A stretch of DNA of 6,771 nucleotides, taken from a virus (lineage: Duplodnaviria > Heunggongvirae > Uroviricota > Caudoviricetes). Location of the stretch: the IMG/VR virus record IMGVR_UViG_2778261503_000003, positions 1 through 6,771 of that record; one strand, given 5' to 3'. Below the pieces are notes generated by a model. The model saw nothing but the letters and a program-made list of their open reading frames with translations, did no database searches and was not told the DNA's origin. Of this stretch, positions 1 to 6,771 are shown in pieces (position 1 is the first letter of the stretch; each line of letters begins with the position of its first letter). The translations under genes and the position numbers were made by a program.

Positions 1-77
1 AGCTGATAGAAACAGAAGCCACTGGAGCACCTCAAAAACACCATCATACACTAAATCAGTAAGTTGGCAGCATCACC
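1..77 (-). mobile_element. IS1 terminal fragment: inverted-repeat end plus the first codons of insA; the element continues beyond the window start
   Basis: Reverse complement of 1-77 reads GGTGATGCTGCCAACTTACTGATTTAGTGTATGATGGTGTTTTTGAGGTGCTCCAGTGGCTTCTGTTTCTATCAGCT, which I recognise as the IS1 left end; the insA GTG start lies at 22 on the minus strand (GTG GCT TCT GTT TCT ATC AGC = M A S V S I S). The match stops abruptly after 77. Confidence 0.85.
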
Positions 78-529
78 TACGTTGTAAATGGTTACAGGTA
101 GCACTTTGTTATTGAGCATGATGCCTGTGTGAGTCAGTGTAAATATACTTTCAGGAGGTAAGAAAGCATCCGATTGATACCAGATTATTAATTTTATTTT
201 ACTCCATATGACTGAAAAAGATATTCCGCATGATGGCTGGATAACTGTATCAATCACAATCCACTTCATTTGGTTTCCTTGTTTATGCCTTGCTGGTGAT
301 GTCCTGAAAAGTATAAATGATATTTTTGAATGTAAACCATAGAGCAGAATTATTTTTCTGATGTTGTTTATTGTTTATTTAAATGCAGGGTGGTTTATAT
401 CTCGTCTTGTAGTTTATCCATGCATATCTGCTTGATAATCAGGTTTTTATTTAAGGTATAGTTTTGTGTTTTTTCTGTATTACATGTCAGGTATTTTAAA
501 GAATTATTTTTCAGATAGTGGAAAGAACC

Positions 530-718
530 ATGGCATTTAAACACTATGATGTTGTCAGGGCGGCGCCGCCGTCAGATCTTGCGGAAAAGCTGACACATAA
601 ACTGAAAGAGGGCTGGCAGCCGTTTGGTAGTCCGGTGGCCATAACCCCTTATACCCTGATGCAGGCGATTGCAGCAGAAGGTGATGTGGTGGTCAGTGGT
701 GCAACTGAGCCGGAGTGA
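530..718 (+). CDS. Small conserved lambdoid late-region protein, 62 aa, possibly DUF1737-like
   Basis: ORF track 518..718; the first ATG is at 530 (MAFKHYDVV...), preceded by GGAAAG. Soluble, with a ...EGWQPFGSPVA... motif that resembles small phage DUF1737 proteins as I remember them. The family label is uncertain. Confidence 0.55.
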   Translation: MAFKHYDVVRAAPPSDLAEKLTHKLKEGWQPFGSPVAITPYTLMQAIAAEGDVVVSGATEPE

Positions 719-762
719 TACTACGTCATCGTACTGGCCCGGCATTCCAGGCCATAAAAGAC

Positions 763-862
763 AGTCTGGCAGTGGGACTAAATGCACTGACGCTGACGGA
801 TATTACCAAAAATGCAACGTATGGCGTTGAGATAGAAAGTCTGGCGCTGGAGATAAATGCAC
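763..862 (+). repeat. Imperfect 25-bp direct repeat, two copies (763-787 and 838-862), 75 bp apart
   Basis: AGTCTGGCAGTGGGACTAAATGCAC versus AGTCTGGCGCTGGAGATAAATGCAC, 20 of 25 identical; both share the TAAATGCAC core. Confidence 0.5.
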
Positions 863-959
863 CGGCATCATCATAAAAAGTGAGCCAGTCAAATGGAAGG
901 TATCGTTAAACTCACCGGTAGTGTCAGTGGGTCGTCTGAGACGCTTGCATGAGTTATCA

Positions 960-992
960 GAGCCATCAGTAGTTAACTGGTGGCTTTTTTAT
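960..992 (+). terminator. Intrinsic-terminator-like hairpin and T-tract about 35 bp upstream of the holin start; candidate late terminator (tR'-like)
   Basis: Stem 960-969 (GAGCCATCAG) pairs with 977-986 (CTGGTGGCTT) with two G-U wobbles, 7-nt loop, followed by a run of six T. Confidence 0.45.
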
Positions 993-1025
993 TGTTGTCA
1001 GCTTCCGGATAACGGGAGACGGGGT

Positions 1026-1241
1026 ATGGACCAGATGGAAAAAATCACAACAGGTGTGTCATACACCACGTCAGCGGTGGGAACGGGCTACTGGTTCCTG
1101 CAGTTGCTGGACAGGGTTTCCCCGTCTCAGTGGGCGGCAATAGGCGTGCTGGGAAGTCTGCTGTTTGGGCTGCTGACATATCTGACTAACCTGTATTTCA
1201 AAATCAGAGAGGACCGTCGTAAGGCGGCACGGGGAGAGTAA
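1026..1241 (+). CDS. S: Class II holin (pinholin, phage 21 S-like), 71 aa, with dual-start motif
   Basis: [71 protein letters not shown] is near-identical in pattern to S21/EssD as remembered. Two TMDs, the first weakly hydrophobic; Met1 and Met4 give the antiholin/holin dual start; basic C-terminus. The GTG-initiated extension from 921 is rejected. Confidence 0.9.
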
Positions 1242-1245
1242 TTCA

Positions 1246-1590
1246 ATGACTCAAAACTATGAACTGATTGTGAAAGGGATCCGCAATTTTGAGAATACAG
1301 TTACGGTAACTTTAGCGTTACGGGACAAAAAACGCTTTGACGGTGAAATTTTAGACCTGGACATCTCGCTGGACCGTGTTGAAGGTGCCGCGCTGGAGTT
1401 TTATGAGGCAGCAGCCAGAAGGAGCATCAGACAGGTCTTCCTGGATGTTGCTGCCGGGTTATGTGAAGGGGATGAGCAGTCACCGGAAAAGCGCCCCATA
1501 ATTTTAGAGGCGCAGGGTGTGTGGATAACCTACAAAGGAAAACTGCCGGGAAGAATTACTGGTTCACTGAAGACTCCGCCGAAATGGTAA
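1246..1590 (+). CDS. Hypothetical 114-aa soluble protein between holin and endolysin
   Basis: ATG at 1246 lies 5 nt after the holin stop, with GGGGAGAG upstream. No TM segment. No confident family recognition; may correspond to the ydfR-position gene of Qin-type prophages. Confidence 0.55.
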   Translation: MTQNYELIVKGIRNFENTVTVTLALRDKKRFDGEILDLDISLDRVEGAALEFYEAAARRSIRQVFLDVAAGLCEGDEQSPEKRPIILEAQGVWITYKGKLPGRITGSLKTPPKW

Positions 1591-1828
1591 TTTCACCAGC
1601 ATATTTTTCTTCCAGTAATACCGCCAGCCACTTGAAAGAATTTTGTTGTTGCTGGGACCATTTGGGGTTGAGTGATTCAAGCTGGAGCGATGCCAGTGTT
1701 GGTTGCATTTGTTCCTTGGGAATTGAGAATGCCAGATATGAAAATGCGACAGTAAGGGCATTTACATCATCCCGAAGCTTGGAAATGCAGTCGAGCAACT
1801 CCTGTAGAGAAATGGTGCTATTGTCCAT
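1556..1828 (-). CDS. Hypothetical 90-aa protein encoded antisense to the lysis operon
   Basis: Minus-strand ATG at 1828 is preceded by AGAGAGGATTGTTT (GAGG with 7-nt spacing). A candidate -10 TACAAT (plus 1843-1848) and -35 TTGAAT (plus 1868-1873) lie upstream. The 3' end overlaps the 114-aa ORF by 35 bp. The alternative plus-frame ORF 1521..1853 is Cys/Ser-rich and does not look protein-like. Confidence 0.4.
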   Translation of the reverse strand: MDNSTISLQELLDCISKLRDDVNALTVAFSYLAFSIPKEQMQPTLASLQLESLNPKWSQQQQNSFKWLAVLLEEKYAGEITISAESSVNQ

Positions 1829-1933
1829 AAACAATCCTCTCTATTGTATTTAACTATTCCTTGCCTGATTCAACAGGCCGGGACAGATAAACATATCCAG
1901 GGTTCAGAAACCGATAAATCCTGATAAATATCC

Positions 1934-2467
1934 ATGAACGCAAAAATCAGATACGGCCTGTCGGCTGCCGTTCTGGCACTGATTGCCGTCGGTGCGCCTG
2001 CGCCTGATATTCTCGACCAGTTTCTGGATGAAAAAGAAGGTAACCACACAACGGCATACCGCGATGGTTCCGGTATATGGACCATCTGTCGTGGTGCCAC
2101 AATGGTGGATGGTAAGCCCGTCATACCGGGAATGAGGCTGTCGAAGGAAAAATGCGACCAGGTTAACGCTATTGAACGTGATAAGGCGCTGGCATGGGTG
2201 GAGCGCAATATTAAAGTACCACTGACCGAACCACAGAAAGCGGGTATAGCGTCATTCTGTCCCTATAACATTGGCCCCGGTAAGTGTTTCCCGTCGACGT
2301 TTTATAAGCGGCTGAATGCCGGTGATCGTAAGGGCGCATGCGAGGCGATTCGCTGGTGGATAAAAGATGGTGGGCGCGATTGCCGCATACGTTCAAATAA
2401 CTGCTATGGACAGGTTATTCGTCGTGACCAGGAAAGCGCATTAGCCTGTTGGGGGATAGATCAGTGA
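1934..2467 (+). CDS. R: SAR endolysin (T4-lysozyme-like, GH24 family)
   Basis: N-terminal Gly/Ala-rich weakly hydrophobic segment ([17 protein letters not shown]), as in signal-anchor-release endolysins. Catalytic E-x8-D-x5-T arrangement in [16 protein letters not shown]. The stop overlaps the Rz start (GTGA). Confidence 0.9.
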
Positions 2468-2931
2468 GCAGAGTCGCAGCGATTATTTATACTCTGGTTA
2501 TCTGCACCATCGTCTGCCTGTCATGGGCTGTTAATCATTACCGCGATAACGCCATTACCTACAAAGCCCAGCGCGACAAAAATGTCAGAGAACTGAAGCT
2601 GGCGAACGCGGCAATTACTGACATGCAGATGCGTCAGCGTGATGTTGCTGCGCTCGATGCAAAATACACGAAGGAGTTAGCTGATGCGAAAGCTGAAAAT
2701 GATGCTCTTCTGCGGAAGCTTGATAATGGTGGCAGGGTGCTCGTCAAAGGAAAATGCCCTGTGCCATCCTCAGCCGAAACCTCCAGCGCCTCCGGCATGG
2801 GCAATGATGCCACCGTCGAACTCTCTCCAGTTGCTGGACGAAACGTTCTCGATATCCGGGACGGAATTATCCGCGACCAAACAGCACTGAGAACGCTTCA
2901 GGAATACATTAGGACGCAATGCCTTCGATGA
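2464..2931 (+). CDS. Rz: Rz i-spanin
   Basis: From GTG 2464: [40 protein letters not shown]..., N-terminal TM then coiled-coil region, strongly resembling lambda/DLP12 Rz as remembered. The ORF track start at 2449 is a TTG read-back. Confidence 0.85.
2684..2890 (+). CDS. Rz1: Rz1 o-spanin lipoprotein, embedded in the +1 frame of Rz
   Basis: Strong SD AAGGAG 7 nt before ATG 2684; signal peptide with lipobox VAGC; proline-rich mature part ([11 protein letters not shown]); entirely inside Rz. Confidence 0.8.
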
Positions 2932-3105
2932 TAGCAATAATTTTACTCATCATCCTTCACATCTGGCTCTGTAGACAGGGTGGTGATCACTTCTGGAGTA
3001 AATCCAGATTAAACATCTCATTGCTGATGCTTGATATTGAGCATCTGGCGCGCAGTAAGGGGCTGCGTTGAGATAAGAGCCAGTTCATTACAAATACCAG
3101 GATTT

Positions 3106-3131
3106 AGCCTCGCATTCGCGGGGCTTTTTAT
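3106..3131 (+). terminator. Rho-independent terminator downstream of Rz/Rz1
   Basis: GC-rich 8-bp stem (AGCCTCGC / GCGGGGCT), 4-nt loop ATTC, followed by TTTTTAT. Confidence 0.6.
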
Positions 3132-3139
3132 ATCTGAAT

Positions 3140-3167
3140 TTCACAGCGCATCTCACGCGCATATTAA
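3140..3167 (+). promoter_or_regulatory. Candidate sigma70 promoter for the Rha gene
   Basis: TTCACA (3140-3145), 16-bp spacer, TATTAA (3162-3167), directly after the terminator. The spacer holds a GCGCAT direct repeat (3146-3151 and 3157-3162). Confidence 0.3.
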
Positions 3168-3273
3168 CGAGAGCCTTTCAGTAAGCGAGCCTGAGAAATG
3201 CCGTTATAGGTGGCGACCTCTCTCGGGCGGCTTTTCTGTGAGACAGGCTCACTTTCTAAAAGGTAAAGACGCT

Positions 3274-3798
3274 ATGAATAATCATTCAGTTATTCCAGCC
3301 TTCGACTTCCGAGAAATGGTGCAAGCCAAAAACGGAGAGGTCGTTACCACATCCAGAAAAATTGCCAAGTACTTCGGCAAGCGACACGGTGATGTTCTCA
3401 GGAAAATCGAGCAGGTTAAGGCTGATTGCTCGCGTGAGTTTAGCCAACGCAATTTTGCGTCGGCTGATTATATCGATGAGCAGGGCAAGGTTCGCCCGAT
3501 GTACAGCCTGACGAAAGATGGCTGGATCATGGTTGTGATGGGGTTCACCGGGAAAGCTGCTGCGGCAATCAAGGAGAGCTATATCGCAGCATTCAACTGG
3601 ATGGCAGAGCAACTGAGCCGCCGCATGGCAATTGGCGAAGAAATGCAGCACCGCTACGCCACCAAAGAAACACGCTCAAAGCTGAAAGGTACGATCGGCA
3701 GTCGGTTAATGAACGAACGGAAGAAAGAGAAGCGTGTCCTGGCTGTCGAGCATGAATACATCTTGCAGGTGACACAGCCTGAACTGCTGATTAATTGA
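3274..3798 (+). CDS. rha: Rha-family phage regulatory protein
   Basis: MNNHSVIPAF...TSRKIAKYFGKRHGDVLRKIEQ...MYSLTKDGWIMVVMGFTGKAAAAIKESYIAAFNWMAEQL matches the Rha domain pattern as I remember it. The only in-frame ATG is 3274, with AGGT 9 nt upstream; the 3031 extension runs through a terminator and is rejected. Confidence 0.8.
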   Translation: MNNHSVIPAFDFREMVQAKNGEVVTTSRKIAKYFGKRHGDVLRKIEQVKADCSREFSQRNFASADYIDEQGKVRPMYSLTKDGWIMVVMGFTGKAAAAIKESYIAAFNWMAEQLSRRMAIGEEMQHRYATKETRSKLKGTIGSRLMNERKKEKRVLAVEHEYILQVTQPELLIN

Positions 3799-3854
3799 AG
3801 ATGTCATTACAAAGCCTATCTACGGGGGGATTGATAATGGCTTATACCCTGCAC

Positions 3855-3880
3855 GGGATAACTTAACTGATATCCCTTTT
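3855..3880 (+). terminator. Weak terminator-like hairpin downstream of rha
   Basis: GGGATA (3855-3860), 10-nt loop, TATCCC (3871-3876), then TTTT (3877-3880). Confidence 0.3.
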
Positions 3881-3930
3881 AACGGATAAAGGTATTCAAG
3901 CCTGACACATCATGCGCTGTATCGTCGCCG

Positions 3931-3995
3931 TATTCCCGCATTAACCATGACCGTAGCCCGACGGGGAATTCCTTCTGCGTGAGTGTGCGGGAATA
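3931..3995. repeat. Perfect 10-bp inverted repeat (TATTCCCGCA / TGCGGGAATA) flanking a 45-bp spacer
   Basis: 3931-3940 and 3986-3995 are exact reverse complements; the spacer contains GAATTCC and G/C-rich CCCGACGGGG. Confidence 0.5.
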
Positions 3996-4100
3996 ATCAA
4001 AAACGATGCACACCGGGTTATTAACGCGTCAACTGAACGCGGGGTTGCTCTTCATGTCAGCCAGTCCGGTGCAGGGGTAGAAGAAACCGGACGTTATGGT

Positions 4101-4511
4101 TTAGTGTGGAAACATTTGTGATGTGCTCTGTATGTTTTCAGTAAAGAGTAATGAATTATCAAAGGTATAGTAATATCTTTTTTGTTCGTGGATATTTGTA
4201 ACCCACCGAAAAACTCCTGCTTTAGCAAGGTTTCTTCTGTATTCCTGAAATGTGATCTCTCTGGATTTCAGCTTATTAGAGGTCGTTTCTATAAGATGCC
4301 TATCCTTTGAAAATTTGACAGACACAATGTTTTTTAGGCCCTTTAATAACACTGTATTATCATTTTTTAATACAATATGAACATTCTCTGTGGCTAAATA
4401 GTAAATGTAATGTGAGACATTGTGACGTTTTAGCTCAGAATAAAACCATTGATAGTTTAAATCGTTTCGAACTTTATCAAATATTTGTTTAAAAATGACT
4501 ACCTGATCCAT
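4101..4511 (-). CDS. DUF1398-like protein (YdfO/YbcV-like), 136 aa, AT-rich gene
   Basis: ORF track 4101..4526; the internal ATG at 4511 (MDQVVIFKQ...) has the better SD (GAAGG, 7-nt spacing), while the 4526 ATG has none. Size and position between lysis genes and terminase match the ydfO/ybcV morons of Qin and DLP12. The family label is from memory. Confidence 0.6.
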
Positions 4512-4568
4512 AGATAAACCTTCCATGTGATATGAGGGGGCGTAGTCTGCACGATTATCTAAATTGCT

Positions 4569-4802
4569 TCAATCTGGTCTGACCTGTTTTCTGAGCAATT
4601 CAGTAATGTCACTCTTTTCTTTGTTTGCTTCAGGAGAAACTCTTTTTTCTGAGCACAGTCTCCGGCGGCAGGCTTCAATGACCCAGGCTGAGAAATTCCC
4701 GGACCCTTTTTGATCAAGAGCGATGTTAATTTGTTCAATCATTTGGTTAGGAAAGCGGATGTTGCGGGTTGTTGTTCTGCGGGTTTTGTTCTTCGTTGAC
4801 AT
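4569..4802 (-). CDS. Small ribbon-helix-helix-like protein (YnfO/YlcI-like), 77 aa
   Basis: Basic N-terminus then RNIRFPNQMIEQINIAL...GSGNFSAWVIEACRRRL, which looks like a strand-helix-loop-helix RHH pattern. It lies 57 bp upstream of, and on the same strand as, the DUF1398-like gene. Confidence 0.6.
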   Translation of the reverse strand: MSTKNKTRRTTTRNIRFPNQMIEQINIALDQKGSGNFSAWVIEACRRRLCSEKRVSPEANKEKSDITELLRKQVRPD

Positions 4803-5001
4803 GAGGTTGCCCCGTATTCAGTGTCGCTGATTTGTATTGTCTGAAGTTGTTTTTACGTTAAGTTGATGCAGATCAATTAATACGATACCTGCGTCATAAT
4901 TGATTATTTGACGTGGTTTGATGGCGTAGATGCACGTTGTGACATATAGATGATAATTATTATCATTTTGCGGGTCCTTTCCGGCGATCCGACAGGTTAC
5001 G

Positions 5002-5013
5002 GGGCGGCGACCT
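5002..5013. other. cosN: 12-nt cohesive-end site GGGCGGCGACCT, flanked by lambda-like cosQ-side and cosB-side sequence
   Basis: 4966-5048 reads TTTTGCGGGTCCTTTCCGGCGATCCGACAGGTTACG|GGGCGGCGACCT|CGCGGGTTTTCGCTATTTATGAAAATTTTCCGG, which I recognise as the lambda right end, cohesive end and first bases of the left end. The Nu1 start is 195 bp downstream, as in lambda. Confidence 0.85.
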
Positions 5014-5039
5014 CGCGGGTTTTCGCTATTTATGAAAAT

Positions 5040-5160
5040 TTTCCGGGAACCATGTCCGGTTTCTCTTCAAGTTAACTATATGAAAAATAAAAAAAGAGGT
5101 CTTCTGTGAACCGGGCATGCACAAAAAATAGACATGTAAGCCGGACATGACCGGTTTTGT
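5040..5160 (+). promoter_or_regulatory. cosB-like region with a repeated CCGG(A/G)CATG motif; putative terminase small-subunit binding sites
   Basis: CATGTCCGG (5051-5059), its reverse complement CCGGACATG (5141-5149), and a near copy CCGGGCATG (5111-5119), with AT-rich stretches between them. Confidence 0.45.
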
Positions 5161-5196
5161 TGTGATTGTGAAGTGAGAGTTTTTGCGAGGTGAGGA

Positions 5197-5706
5197 GTGG
5201 CTACGCAGACTGAAGTTGCCAGGCATTTAAGTCTGACCGATCGCCAGCTTCGCAGATTGCAGAAATTGCCGGGTGCCCCGATATCGAATAAGCGAGGGCA
5301 ACTGGATCTGGATGCCTGGCGCGATTTTTACATATCGTATCTGAGAAGAAGTAAAAACGATGTGCCTGATGGCGATAGCGAAGACGACTATGAGGAGAAA
5401 TTGCTTATTGCCAGATGGGAACTGACAGCAGAACAGGCTGTTACACAGCAGTTAAAAAATGAGGTGTCAAAAGGAAAACTTATTGATACCGGGTTCTGTA
5501 TTTTTGCTCTCAGCAAGCTGGCAATGGCGTTATCCAGTACGCTTGATTCCATCCCTTTATCCATGCAGCGACAGTTTCCTGATTTAACACCGCGCCATCT
5601 TGACCATCTGAAAACCCTTATTGCGAAGGGGGCAAATCAGTGTGCGCGGGCGGGGGATAAATTACCGGATTTACTCGATGAATATATCAGAGCAACAACT
5701 GAATAA
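5197..5706 (+). CDS. nu1: Terminase small subunit (Nu1-like)
   Basis: GTG start with GAGG 7 nt upstream; N-terminal HTH-like TQTEVARHLSLTDRQLRRL; C-terminal half (TGFCIFALSKLAMALSSTLDSIPLSMQRQFPDLTPRHLDHLK...LLDEYI) closely parallels lambda Nu1 as remembered. Confidence 0.9.
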   Translation: MATQTEVARHLSLTDRQLRRLQKLPGAPISNKRGQLDLDAWRDFYISYLRRSKNDVPDGDSEDDYEEKLLIARWELTAEQAVTQQLKNEVSKGKLIDTGFCIFALSKLAMALSSTLDSIPLSMQRQFPDLTPRHLDHLKTLIAKGANQCARAGDKLPDLLDEYIRATTE

Positions 5707-5707
5707 T

Positions 5708-6771
5708 ATGATGAGTGCTGTCACAACAGCATTACAGCCCCTGATAAGGGCATTGCCGGTGACGCCAGTTGAATGGGCTGATCAAAATTATTATCTGCCT
5801 AAAGAATCTTCATATGGTGAGGGAGAATGGAAAACGCTGCCGTTCCAGATCGCCATCATGAACAGCATGGGGAATGATCAGATCCGGACTGTTAATCTGA
5901 TTAAATCTGCCCGTGTTGGCTATACAAAGATGTTGCTGGGGGTGGTCGGGTATTTTATTGAGCATAAATCCCGAAACAGTCTGCTTTTTCAGCCCACGGA
6001 TTCTGCCGCTGAAGATTTTATGAAGTCTCACGTGGAGGCGACGATTCGGGATGTTCCCTGCCTGAAAAAACTTTCTCCATGGCTGGGGCGTAAACATCGT
6101 GACAATACTCTCACGCTGAAACGCTTTTCATCGGGTGTGGGCTTCTGGTGCCTGGGCGGCGCTGCCGCCAAAAACTACCGTGAAAAATCCGTGGACGTGG
6201 TCTGCTATGACGAACTTTCCTCGTTCGAACCGGATGTCGAAAAAGAGGGTTCGCCAACCCTGCTTGGGGATAAACGTATTGAGGGCTCTGTATGGCCCAA
6301 ATCCATTCGCGGCTCGACGCCTAAAATCAAAGGCACCTGCCAGATCGAAAAAGCGGCCAACGAGTCGGCGCATTTCATGCGTTTTTATGTGCCCTGCCCA
6401 CACTGTGGGGAGGAGCAGTATCTGAAATTTGGCGATGAATCCACGCCTTTTGGCCTTAAATGGGAGAAGGACAGCCCCGAAAGCGTTTTCTACCTCTGTG
6501 AACATCATGGCTGCGTGATCCATCAGTCTGAGCTTGACCAGAGCAACGGGCGGTGGATCTGTGAAAACACGGGGATGTGGACCCGTGACGGTCTGACGTT
6601 TTTCAGCGCCGCGGATAATGAAATTCCGCCGCCGCGCTCCATCACGTTCCATATCTGGACAGCGTACAGTCCATTCACCACCTGGGTACAGATAGTCTAT
6701 GACTGGCTGGATGCACTGAAAGATCCCAACGGCCTGAAAACCTTTGTGAACACCACGCTGGGCGAGACCTG
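5708..6771 (+). CDS. A: Terminase large subunit (gpA-like), 5' portion; runs off the window end
   Basis: ATG at 5708, 1 nt after the nu1 stop. Translation MMSAVTTALQPL...VEWADQNYYLPKESSYGEGEWKTLPFQIAIMNSMG...FWCLGGAAAKNYREKSVDV...VPCPHCGEEQYLKFGD...FVNTTLGET matches lambda gpA as remembered. Absent from the ORF track only because no stop falls in the window. Confidence 0.95.
   Translation, partial: MMSAVTTALQPLIRALPVTPVEWADQNYYLPKESSYGEGEWKTLPFQIAIMNSMGNDQIRTVNLIKSARVGYTKMLLGVVGYFIEHKSRNSLLFQPTDSAAEDFMKSHVEATIRDVPCLKKLSPWLGRKHRDNTLTLKRFSSGVGFWCLGGAAAKNYREKSVDVVCYDELSSFEPDVEKEGSPTLLGDKRIEGSVWPKSIRGSTPKIKGTCQIEKAANESAHFMRFYVPCPHCGEEQYLKFGDESTPFGLKWEKDSPESVFYLCEHHGCVIHQSELDQSNGRWICENTGMWTRDGLTFFSAADNEIPPPRSITFHIWTAYSPFTTWVQIVYDWLDALKDPNGLKTFVNTTLGET

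Follow-up and report, generated by a model that had tools for sequence, protein, structure and literature searches.

A Lambda-Type cos Site With a Diverged cosB and a Divergent Small Terminase Subunit in a Prophage Sequence of the Escherichia coli CFT073 Type

Introduction

Lambda-like phages package their DNA from cos, a site composed of several subsites: cosQ, described as a conserved 7-bp site (PMC4669245), cosN, the nicking site, taken here as defined in section 1.3 of PMC9026076, and cosB, which carries the R sites for the small terminase subunit, TerS, together with a site for IHF. In both lambda and phage 21, residues 20 and 24 of the TerS recognition helix are known specificity determinants (PMC4669245, legend of Figure 2). 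A phage satellite, the phage-inducible chromosomal island (PICI) EcCICFT073 of Escherichia coli CFT073, has two cos sites of this type. The first, cos1, is an Rpp-dependent site with rppA next to it (PMC6739421), and the second, cos2, was reported not to be an Rpp target and to be dispensable for lambda- and phi80-mediated transfer, no phage cosB having been identified in the island (PMC6739421, PMC6092414). Here, we analyze a cos site in a 6,771-nt stretch of tailed-phage DNA, positions 1 to 6,771 of IMG/VR record IMGVR_UViG_2778261503_000003 (hereafter, the window). Very probably, this cos belongs to a lambda-like prophage, either the potB prophage (44 kb) of the CFT073 lineage or a copy identical to it that adjoins an IS1. 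The site joins the cohesive end and right end of lambda to a cosB and a TerS DNA-binding domain that, as far as sequence comparison can tell, form a specificity class distinct from those of lambda, phage 21, N15/Monarch and the Rpp-dependent satellite site.

Results

Lambda Identity Ends Inside cos, at Position 5046

The 12-nt cohesive end GGGCGGCGACCT has a single exact occurrence in the window, at 5002-5013 on the plus strand, where 0.03 occurrences with no more than one mismatch would be expected by chance. Lambda was represented in the comparison by the DE3 record, where these 12 bp carry the annotation 'cos site', and the two sequences were aligned without gaps. Identity was 33/36 over 4966-5001, with mismatches at 4966, 4970 and 4985, 12/12 over the cohesive end, and 33/33 over 5014-5046, so that 78 of the 81 bp from 4966 to 5046 agree. 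Identity then disappears, with 0/14 matches over 5047-5060 and 39/150 over 5047-5196. To the left, the lambda/Qin-type identity continues at ∼96% (251/262 over 4740-5001) and reaches ∼4665; numbering from the first cohesive base as +1, ungapped identity to lambda is lost beyond about -337. When 4800-5250 was used as a megablast query, lambda-type phages were matched over 4800-5046 at 96-99.6% identity (E ∼1e-109 to 1e-124), and in dozens of lambda-like phages the match stopped at 5046. The annotated cos sites of DE3 and of phage 21, whose record (OL657228.1) has bases 1-12 annotated as the cohesive end, align with the window site base for base. Judged from these alignments, the site is a mosaic, lambda/Qin-type through 5046 and with its junction at 5046/5047.

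An earlier note, made from the letters of this stretch, had placed a lambda cohesive end here, flanked by ∼35 bp of lambda match on each side and followed by sharp divergence into a different cosB. The cohesive end and the divergence are both borne out, and the megablast comparison with lambda cos returned the match that the note anticipated; the figure of 35 bp suits the right side and understates the left, where homology runs for ∼340 bp. The note had also assigned everything left of 5001 to the right end of the virion DNA and everything right of 5014 to its left end. These boundaries are exact to the base, since the nicks would be expected between 5001 and 5002 on the top strand and between 5013 and 5014 on the bottom strand, and the orientation is supported by homology to lambda cos. 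For this prophage, packaging by a cos mechanism is likewise predicted from homology, as is cleavage itself.

The Diverged cosB Repeats One Motif in Register With cosN

To the right of the junction, the motif CATGNCCGGYT has four exact matches, at 5051-5061 (+), 5109-5119 (-), 5139-5149 (-) and 5146-5156 (+), a number reached in 0/200 shuffles; 0.74 matches with up to one mismatch would be expected per window. The offsets of the copies, +50, +108 and +137/+145, mirror the curated R sites of phage 21 (R3, 50-65; R2, 107-122, inverted; R1, 150-166). To examine their conservation, we compared 16 relatives from five genera, consisting of six E. coli-group elements and ten distant members, including Klebsiella, Salmonella, Citrobacter and Enterobacter, whose TerS proteins are 60-80% identical. 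The R3-like site is invariant within the E. coli group and lies at +49..+51 in 16/16 relatives. The inverted third copy, AACCGGACATG, is shared by the E. coli group, E. kobei and P0025, and is missing from relatives in which terS starts at +145..+159; the R1-like element is therefore probably accessory, as is R1 of lambda.

An I1-like IHF site lies between the R3-like and R2-like sites. Scanning the whole window with the IHF consensus was uninformative (78 matches versus 79 expected), and the weight of this assignment is carried by the positional comparison instead: the best match to YAANNNNTTGATW falls at +71..+73 in 15/16 relatives, with 0-2 mismatches. On the other side of the junction, the cosQ heptamer and its 30-nt spacing are kept in all examined relatives with canonical cosN layout, and the I2 spacer shows 1-3 changes in phage 21, in PhiR12 phages, in N15/Monarch-type loci and at both PICI cos sites. 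The sequence contains the 12-bp end, the cosQ spacing, a complex cosB, a Nu1-family terS and a gpA-family terL; read in this way, the interval is a complete lambda-type cos, with cosQ, cosN, I2 and cosB in register.

A simple scan for terminator-like hairpins with T-rich tails picked out 5138-5157 (-11.5 kcal/mol as RNA) and 5043-5059 (-7.5 kcal/mol). Such hairpins raise the question of whether 5047-5196 might act instead as a leader of terS, for transcription or translation, with packaging via cosN alone. They coincide with the R1-like palindrome and the R3 region, and probably arise incidentally from the inverted orientation of some motif copies. It is the 9-11-nt copies and not the pairing that are conserved: E. 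kobei and P0025 keep the inverted copy without a palindromic partner. Moreover, the distances of R3 and R2 are fixed relative to cosN and not to terS, whose start varies from +145 to +197, and the motif co-varies with a residue of the DNA-binding helix, as described below. A search of Rfam with 4500-5400 gave no match, the best score, 20 bits, falling short of the gathering threshold of 90, and in lambda the deletion of cosB makes nicking inefficient and inaccurate (PMC4669245). We consider the leader explanation hardly credible.

TerS Combines a Nu1-Like C-Terminal Half With a Divergent DNA-Binding Domain

In Pfam searches, TerS matched Phage_Nu1 (1e-18), and TerL matched GpA_ATPase (1.7e-56) and GpA_nuclease (2e-9). 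The Nu1 model spans only residues 49-150 of TerS, and no sequence similarity to lambda, 21 or N15 TerS was detectable in the N-terminal domain; in BLASTP, the N-terminal 60-70 residues remained unaligned with both 21 gp1 and lambda Nu1. Within the family, the first 55 residues are strongly conserved, and all of 21 sequences compared have M1, A2, T3, Q4, E6, A8, H10, R16, L21, P28, G34, D39, R42, Y45 and L49. A PDB search with the TerS family profile gave no match (best E 0.25). A model of full-length TerS was poor (pTM 0.33) and gave weak Foldseek matches, and the N-terminal domain alone was modelled usably; residues 1 to ∼55 are predicted to adopt a Nu1/MerR-type winged helix-turn-helix fold, as in lambda-like TerS.

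The terS start, at +196, compares with +190/191 in lambda and +189 in phage 21. TerL, which is encoded by an intact gene of 1929 nt in CFT073, is 89% identical to phage 21 TerL over residues 17-364. Its residues 1-16 (5678-5725) do not align with phage 21 TerL, and would fit co-adaptation with the divergent C-terminus of TerS.

The same TerS protein, WP_000235436.1, is present in prophages of unrelated strains, including O157:H7 and avian pathogenic E. coli (APEC) O18, and the module 5047-5706 was found at coverage of at least 80% in 1149 of 5426 complete E. coli genomes, O157:H7 again included. In databases the protein is named 'prophage Qin DNA packaging protein Nu1-like'. We rejected an assignment to the Qin/NohA type of K-12, and regard the name as a misleading annotation transfer, because Qin has a lambda-type cosB and its NohA is of the Nu1 type. 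We also rejected a TerS domain swap at residue 68 in loci L005 and L006, where terS is truncated by an insertion sequence.

One Recognition-Helix Residue Tracks One Base of the R Sites

The 16 relatives (loci L002, L009-L013 and L017-L026) fall into two groups by TerS residue 20, encoded in the window at 5254-5256. Where this residue is Arg (helix ...RQLRRLQK), R3 and R2 both read [C/G/A]ATGTCCGG (10/10), and where it is Asp or Asn, both read CA[T/C]TTCCGG (6/6). Residue 20 thus tracks base 4 of both sites without exception, with CATGTCCGG accompanying Arg and CATTTCCGG accompanying Asp/Asn, and the two groups are not sorted by overall protein identity to the query TerS. The pairing looks like arginine-guanine readout and a natural specificity switch.

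Variation in cosN across the same set lies mainly in its right half, as described for lambda-like phages by Feiss et al. (PMC4669245). In E. coli CEA224S (NZ_CP166080.1; locus L009, ∼520-620), cosQ, the right part of the spacer, cosB and TerS are kept, and cosN is replaced by an unrelated sequence of near-equal length, GGGGGTCATAGCACGCGC...; in the P0013 locus (L022), too, the 12-mer is not that of lambda. Exchange of the cohesive-end sequence is apparently possible independently of cosB.

The Window Type Differs From Each Described cos Type

Lambda has the same cosQ, 12-nt end, cosN flanks, 33-bp spacer and subsite order, an R3 at ∼+50, and ∼340 bp of right end that are ∼96% identical. In contrast, its cosB is unrelated, its R motif is CGTTTCC(T/G)TTCT where the window has CATGnCCGG, and its third site is a direct R1 where that of the window is inverted or palindromic, a difference of detail. 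The absence of any match over 5047-5060 and the failure of the TerS N-terminus to align with Nu1 argue against lambda packaging specificity. K-12 Qin (ydfO-ynfO-cos-nohA) has the left gene order of the window, rrrQ, ydfR, ydfO, ynfO, and scores 33/36, 12/12 and 33/33 over the cos region; unlike the window, Qin of MG1655 keeps a lambda-type cosB and a Nu1-type NohA (L016, 6368-6760, minus strand, between nohA and ynfO). The R3 of N15/Monarch, GAGGTTGTTGTT, located at bp 48-59 (PMC4669245, section 16), is absent from the window. This type was seen in E. albertii and Escherichia sp. loci (L007 and L008) with a different TerS N-terminus, and GGTTGTTGTTT of the E. albertii loci matches the published N15 R3. 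Satellite cos1 has the same cosQ and 12-nt end and differs from the window from +46 on; the window has terS and terL and corresponds to a 44-kb prophage.

The only phage-collection records found to carry this cosB/terS module are those of the PhiR12 series (PV340549-PV340554), plaque-forming temperate phages from the panel described in PMC13190303; PhiR12 forms plaques on K-12. They have the same cosB type, cosQ/cosN and terL, and their TerS is 99.4% identical. They differ from the window in that the sequence left of cosQ is unrelated, homology starting at ∼4951, in that cosB is 84% identical over +46..+147 (86/102), and in that R2 and the leftward copy of the R1-like element, Rc, match the family consensus where the window copies deviate.

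When lambda, phage 21, the 21-like PhiR5_1, N15/Monarch and the window type are placed side by side, all five share the 12-nt end and a similar spacer, and they differ from one another in R motif and in TerS N-terminus. We did not find the window class described in the cos/terminase and PICI literature consulted (PMC4669245, PMC9026076, PMC6739421, PMC6092414), though it may still be described.

Phage 21 (OL657228.1) and CFT073 prophage 4 have an identical cohesive end, near-equal offsets for R3, I1, R2 and R1 and a similar R core, raising the possibility that the window site has phage 21 specificity in disguise and is recognized by a 21-type terminase, including that of prophage 4. Phage 21 R sites, AATCGTGTCGGTACTT, TTTCATGTCGGACCTT (R2, reverse complement) and TTTCATGTCGGGCCTTG, stand at positions close to those of the window copies, the terL genes are closely related, and asymmetric cross-packaging between N15 and lambda is known (PMC4669245). 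The R cores are alike though the recognition helices are unrelated in sequence, and from sequence alone cross-recognition by 21 is therefore conceivable. The core of the window, CATGTCCGG, is nevertheless one base longer than that of phage 21, CATGTCGG, and the extra base shifts GG relative to CATG. TerS has 169 residues against 182 in phage 21; only residues 64-166 align, at 40% identity, leaving the N-terminal 63 residues unaligned with gp1 and outside Pfam Phage_Nu1. Furthermore, the way in which one R-site base tracks one helix residue within the family implies tight readout, and differences smaller than these suffice for lambda and 21 to discriminate more than 1000-fold (PMC4669245). By these sequence criteria, recognition by a 21-type terminase appears improbable.

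Satellite cos2 Carries the cosB Type of the Window

A scan of ∼110 kb of CFT073 around the prophage turned up four cos sites of the lambda type, each with cosQ and the same 12-nt end, at 1,348,533, 1,387,558, 1,388,308 and 1,424,744 of NC_004431.1 (L003, L014 and L015), all within 76 kb. They belong to the potB prophage, EcCICFT073 (two sites) and prophage 4, and carry three cosB types: that of the window, that of the Rpp-dependent site and that of phage 21, the last of these in prophage 4 together with a gp1-type TerS. The second island site, cos2, has its first cohesive base at 1,388,308 on the minus strand (NC_004431.1 ∼1,388,120-1,388,340; L014 ∼17120-17340) and carries the cosB type of the window, with R3, an I1-like site, R2 and an inverted third copy. 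Over +46..+147, it is identical to PhiR12_1 at 101/102 positions and to the window at 85/102. Unlike the window, cos2 has no terS downstream, and homology ends at +148 (9/48 after it). The cos2 segment with island-specific flank occurs at coverage of at least 80% in 53 genomes. These comparisons suggest that cos2 is aimed at helpers with the TerS type of the window, which would recognize it directly and independently of Rpp.

Features of the Window and Their Genomic Setting

The coordinates of the cos subsites and neighboring genes are collected in Table 1.

Table 1. Subsites of the predicted cos and adjacent genes in the 6,771-nt window; offsets are counted with the cohesive end's first base as +1.
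Feature	Position	Strand	Remarks
ynfO	4569-4802	-	Start overlapped by the lambda/Qin-type segment
Lambda/Qin-type right-end segment	4665-5001	+	Non-coding tail of the virion right end; ∼96% identity to lambda and K-12 Qin
cosQ, GGGTCCT	4972-4978	+	Packaging-termination subsite; first base 30 nt ahead of 5002, the lambda spacing
cosN	5000-5015		Nicking site; 12-bp cohesive end flanked by 2 bp left and right; same sequence in lambda, phage 21 and K-12 Qin
Cohesive end, GGGCGGCGACCT	5002-5013	+	Predicted 12-nt 5' overhang of the left end
cosN-cosB spacer (lambda I2 region)	5014-5046	+	Last stretch common to lambda, 33/33
R3-like putative TerS site, CATGTCCGGTTT	5051-5062	+	+50..+61; position of lambda/21 R3 (50-65)
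I1-like IHF site, TAACTATATGAAA (+ strand), then A-tract	5073-5085	-	+72; positional homologue of 21 I1 (74-86) and lambda I1
R2-like putative TerS site, inverted, AACCGGGCATG (+ strand)	5109-5119	-	+108; core at +109/110 in 16/16 relatives
R1-like element	5138-5157		Near-palindrome of two overlapping copies, Rc 5138-5149 (-) and Rd 5146-5157 (+)
terS	5197-5706	+	169 aa, GTG start; N-terminal winged helix-turn-helix (∼aa 1-55), Nu1-like C-terminal half
terL	5678-6771	+	gpA family; overlaps the end of terS; runs off the window

From base 77 to base 6771, the window has 100% identity with E. coli CFT073, clone D and other ST73-like genomes; the CFT073 annotation places ynfO and ydfO just upstream. 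The remaining bases, 1-76, form the end of an IS1 (reverse complement GTGATGCTGCCAACTTACTGATTTAGTG...), which is not present at this point in CFT073 or in the other 100%-identical genomes; the source strain therefore differs by an IS1 insertion, on the iraM side of the prophage late region. In CFT073, the prophage lies between potC and potB, from the integrase at 1,328,014 to tail-fibre genes that end before potB at 1,373,052. It has been called phi-potB, with a length of 44 kb (PMC3573123). Its int, xis, Q, lysis, terminase, portal, protease, decoration, capsid and tail genes are annotated as intact. A 44-kb genome is of a size that lambda-type heads can package. Judged by chromosome order, in which the satellite EcCICFT073 comes as number 3 and the icd-adjacent lambdoid helper as number 4, the potB prophage is 'prophage 2' of Fillol-Salom et al. 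(PMC6092414). A literature search on the Qin/nohA cos and on induction of the potB prophage in CFT073 found nothing relevant.

Discussion

If the site works as its subsites suggest, then during late lytic growth TerS dimers would bind R3 and the inverted R2 through the N-terminal winged helix-turn-helix, probably across an IHF-induced bend at the I1-like site, with the R1-like palindrome serving as an accessory site. The gpA-type TerL would thereby be anchored on cosN, where nicks at the predicted positions would leave 12-nt 5' overhangs identical to those of lambda. Packaging would proceed rightwards from the terS side, and cosQ of the next cos on the concatemer would direct the terminating cut.

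Several points weigh against this reading. Within the site, the IHF-like copy of the window has 2 mismatches, and 41% of spacer shuffles equal it. R2 deviates from the family consensus by a G at 5115 (AACCGGgCATG), where all other Arg20-type members have A, and Rc does so by a G at 5140 (AAgCCGG), where others have A; these changes may reflect mild decay of accessory sites in this lineage, with R3 unchanged. The covariation of residue 20 and the R sites lies between clades that are probably few, which puts the count of independent changes below 16. Among the phage records with this cosB type, none begins at a physical end, the PhiR12 genomes having been deposited in prophage order. Around the site, the CFT073 prophage has an IS200C transposase gene (L003, 18093-18551) that separates Q from the tRNA and late genes and might affect late transcription, and the IS1 end abuts the left edge of the window. 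Finally, satellite transfer after mitomycin C was unaffected by deletion of prophage 2 and was abolished by deletion of prophage 4 alone (PMC6092414), so that there was no sign of potB-prophage particles under those conditions.

These observations could mean that the site is a relic, a cos of good sequence in a prophage that no longer makes virions in this host, its virion ends being historical. In addition to the two insertion sequences, the single deviations in R2 and Rc and the deletion results, that explanation can draw on pseudogene fragments in the early region and in the tail-fibre assembly genes, and on an immunity region that looks Rac-like (with a YdaT family neighbor) instead of the LexA-type cI kind, and may not respond to mitomycin C. 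On the other side, the failure to help the satellite may be a failure to induce it rather than a packaging defect. Against a relic stand the head, tail, lysis and terminase genes, all annotated as intact in CFT073, the occurrence of the identical TerS in prophages of unrelated strains, and the unchanged state of R3, the critical site. We consider a relic unlikely, and continue to read the interval as the cos of the potB prophage or of its IS1-flanked copy.

A broader proposal would join three parts: that the window type is a further, uncharacterised specificity class present in about one-fifth of complete E. coli genomes, that cos2 is a mimic of it, and that the change from Arg20 to Asp/Asn together with G to T at base 4 of the R sites is a natural switch. 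Taken as a whole, we put this forward tentatively, as somewhat doubtful. Were it true, the satellite would be packaged directly by helpers of the potB-prophage or PhiR12 type without Rpp, and cos1 with Rpp would serve helpers of the lambda, phi80 and 21 types.

Judged by its sequence, the cos site is genuine, complete and lambda-type, an ordinary feature of a lambdoid prophage, and the general picture of lambda-type packaging is unchanged. By homology, it fixes a physical map for the prophage: the virion right end would hold the lysis cassette, Rha, ydfO and ynfO, and the left end would hold terS and terL. It also predicts cohesive ends compatible with those of lambda. Its interest is modest, and lies in the distinct cosB/TerS class, in the clean covariation of helix and R sites and in the match to satellite cos2. 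From the covariation comes a readout rule that is simple and testable, for a family of TerS proteins on which we found no experimental study in the literature consulted. The 76-kb stretch of CFT073 is a natural setting in which terminase specificity may separate co-resident elements, or in which a satellite may exploit more than one helper family.

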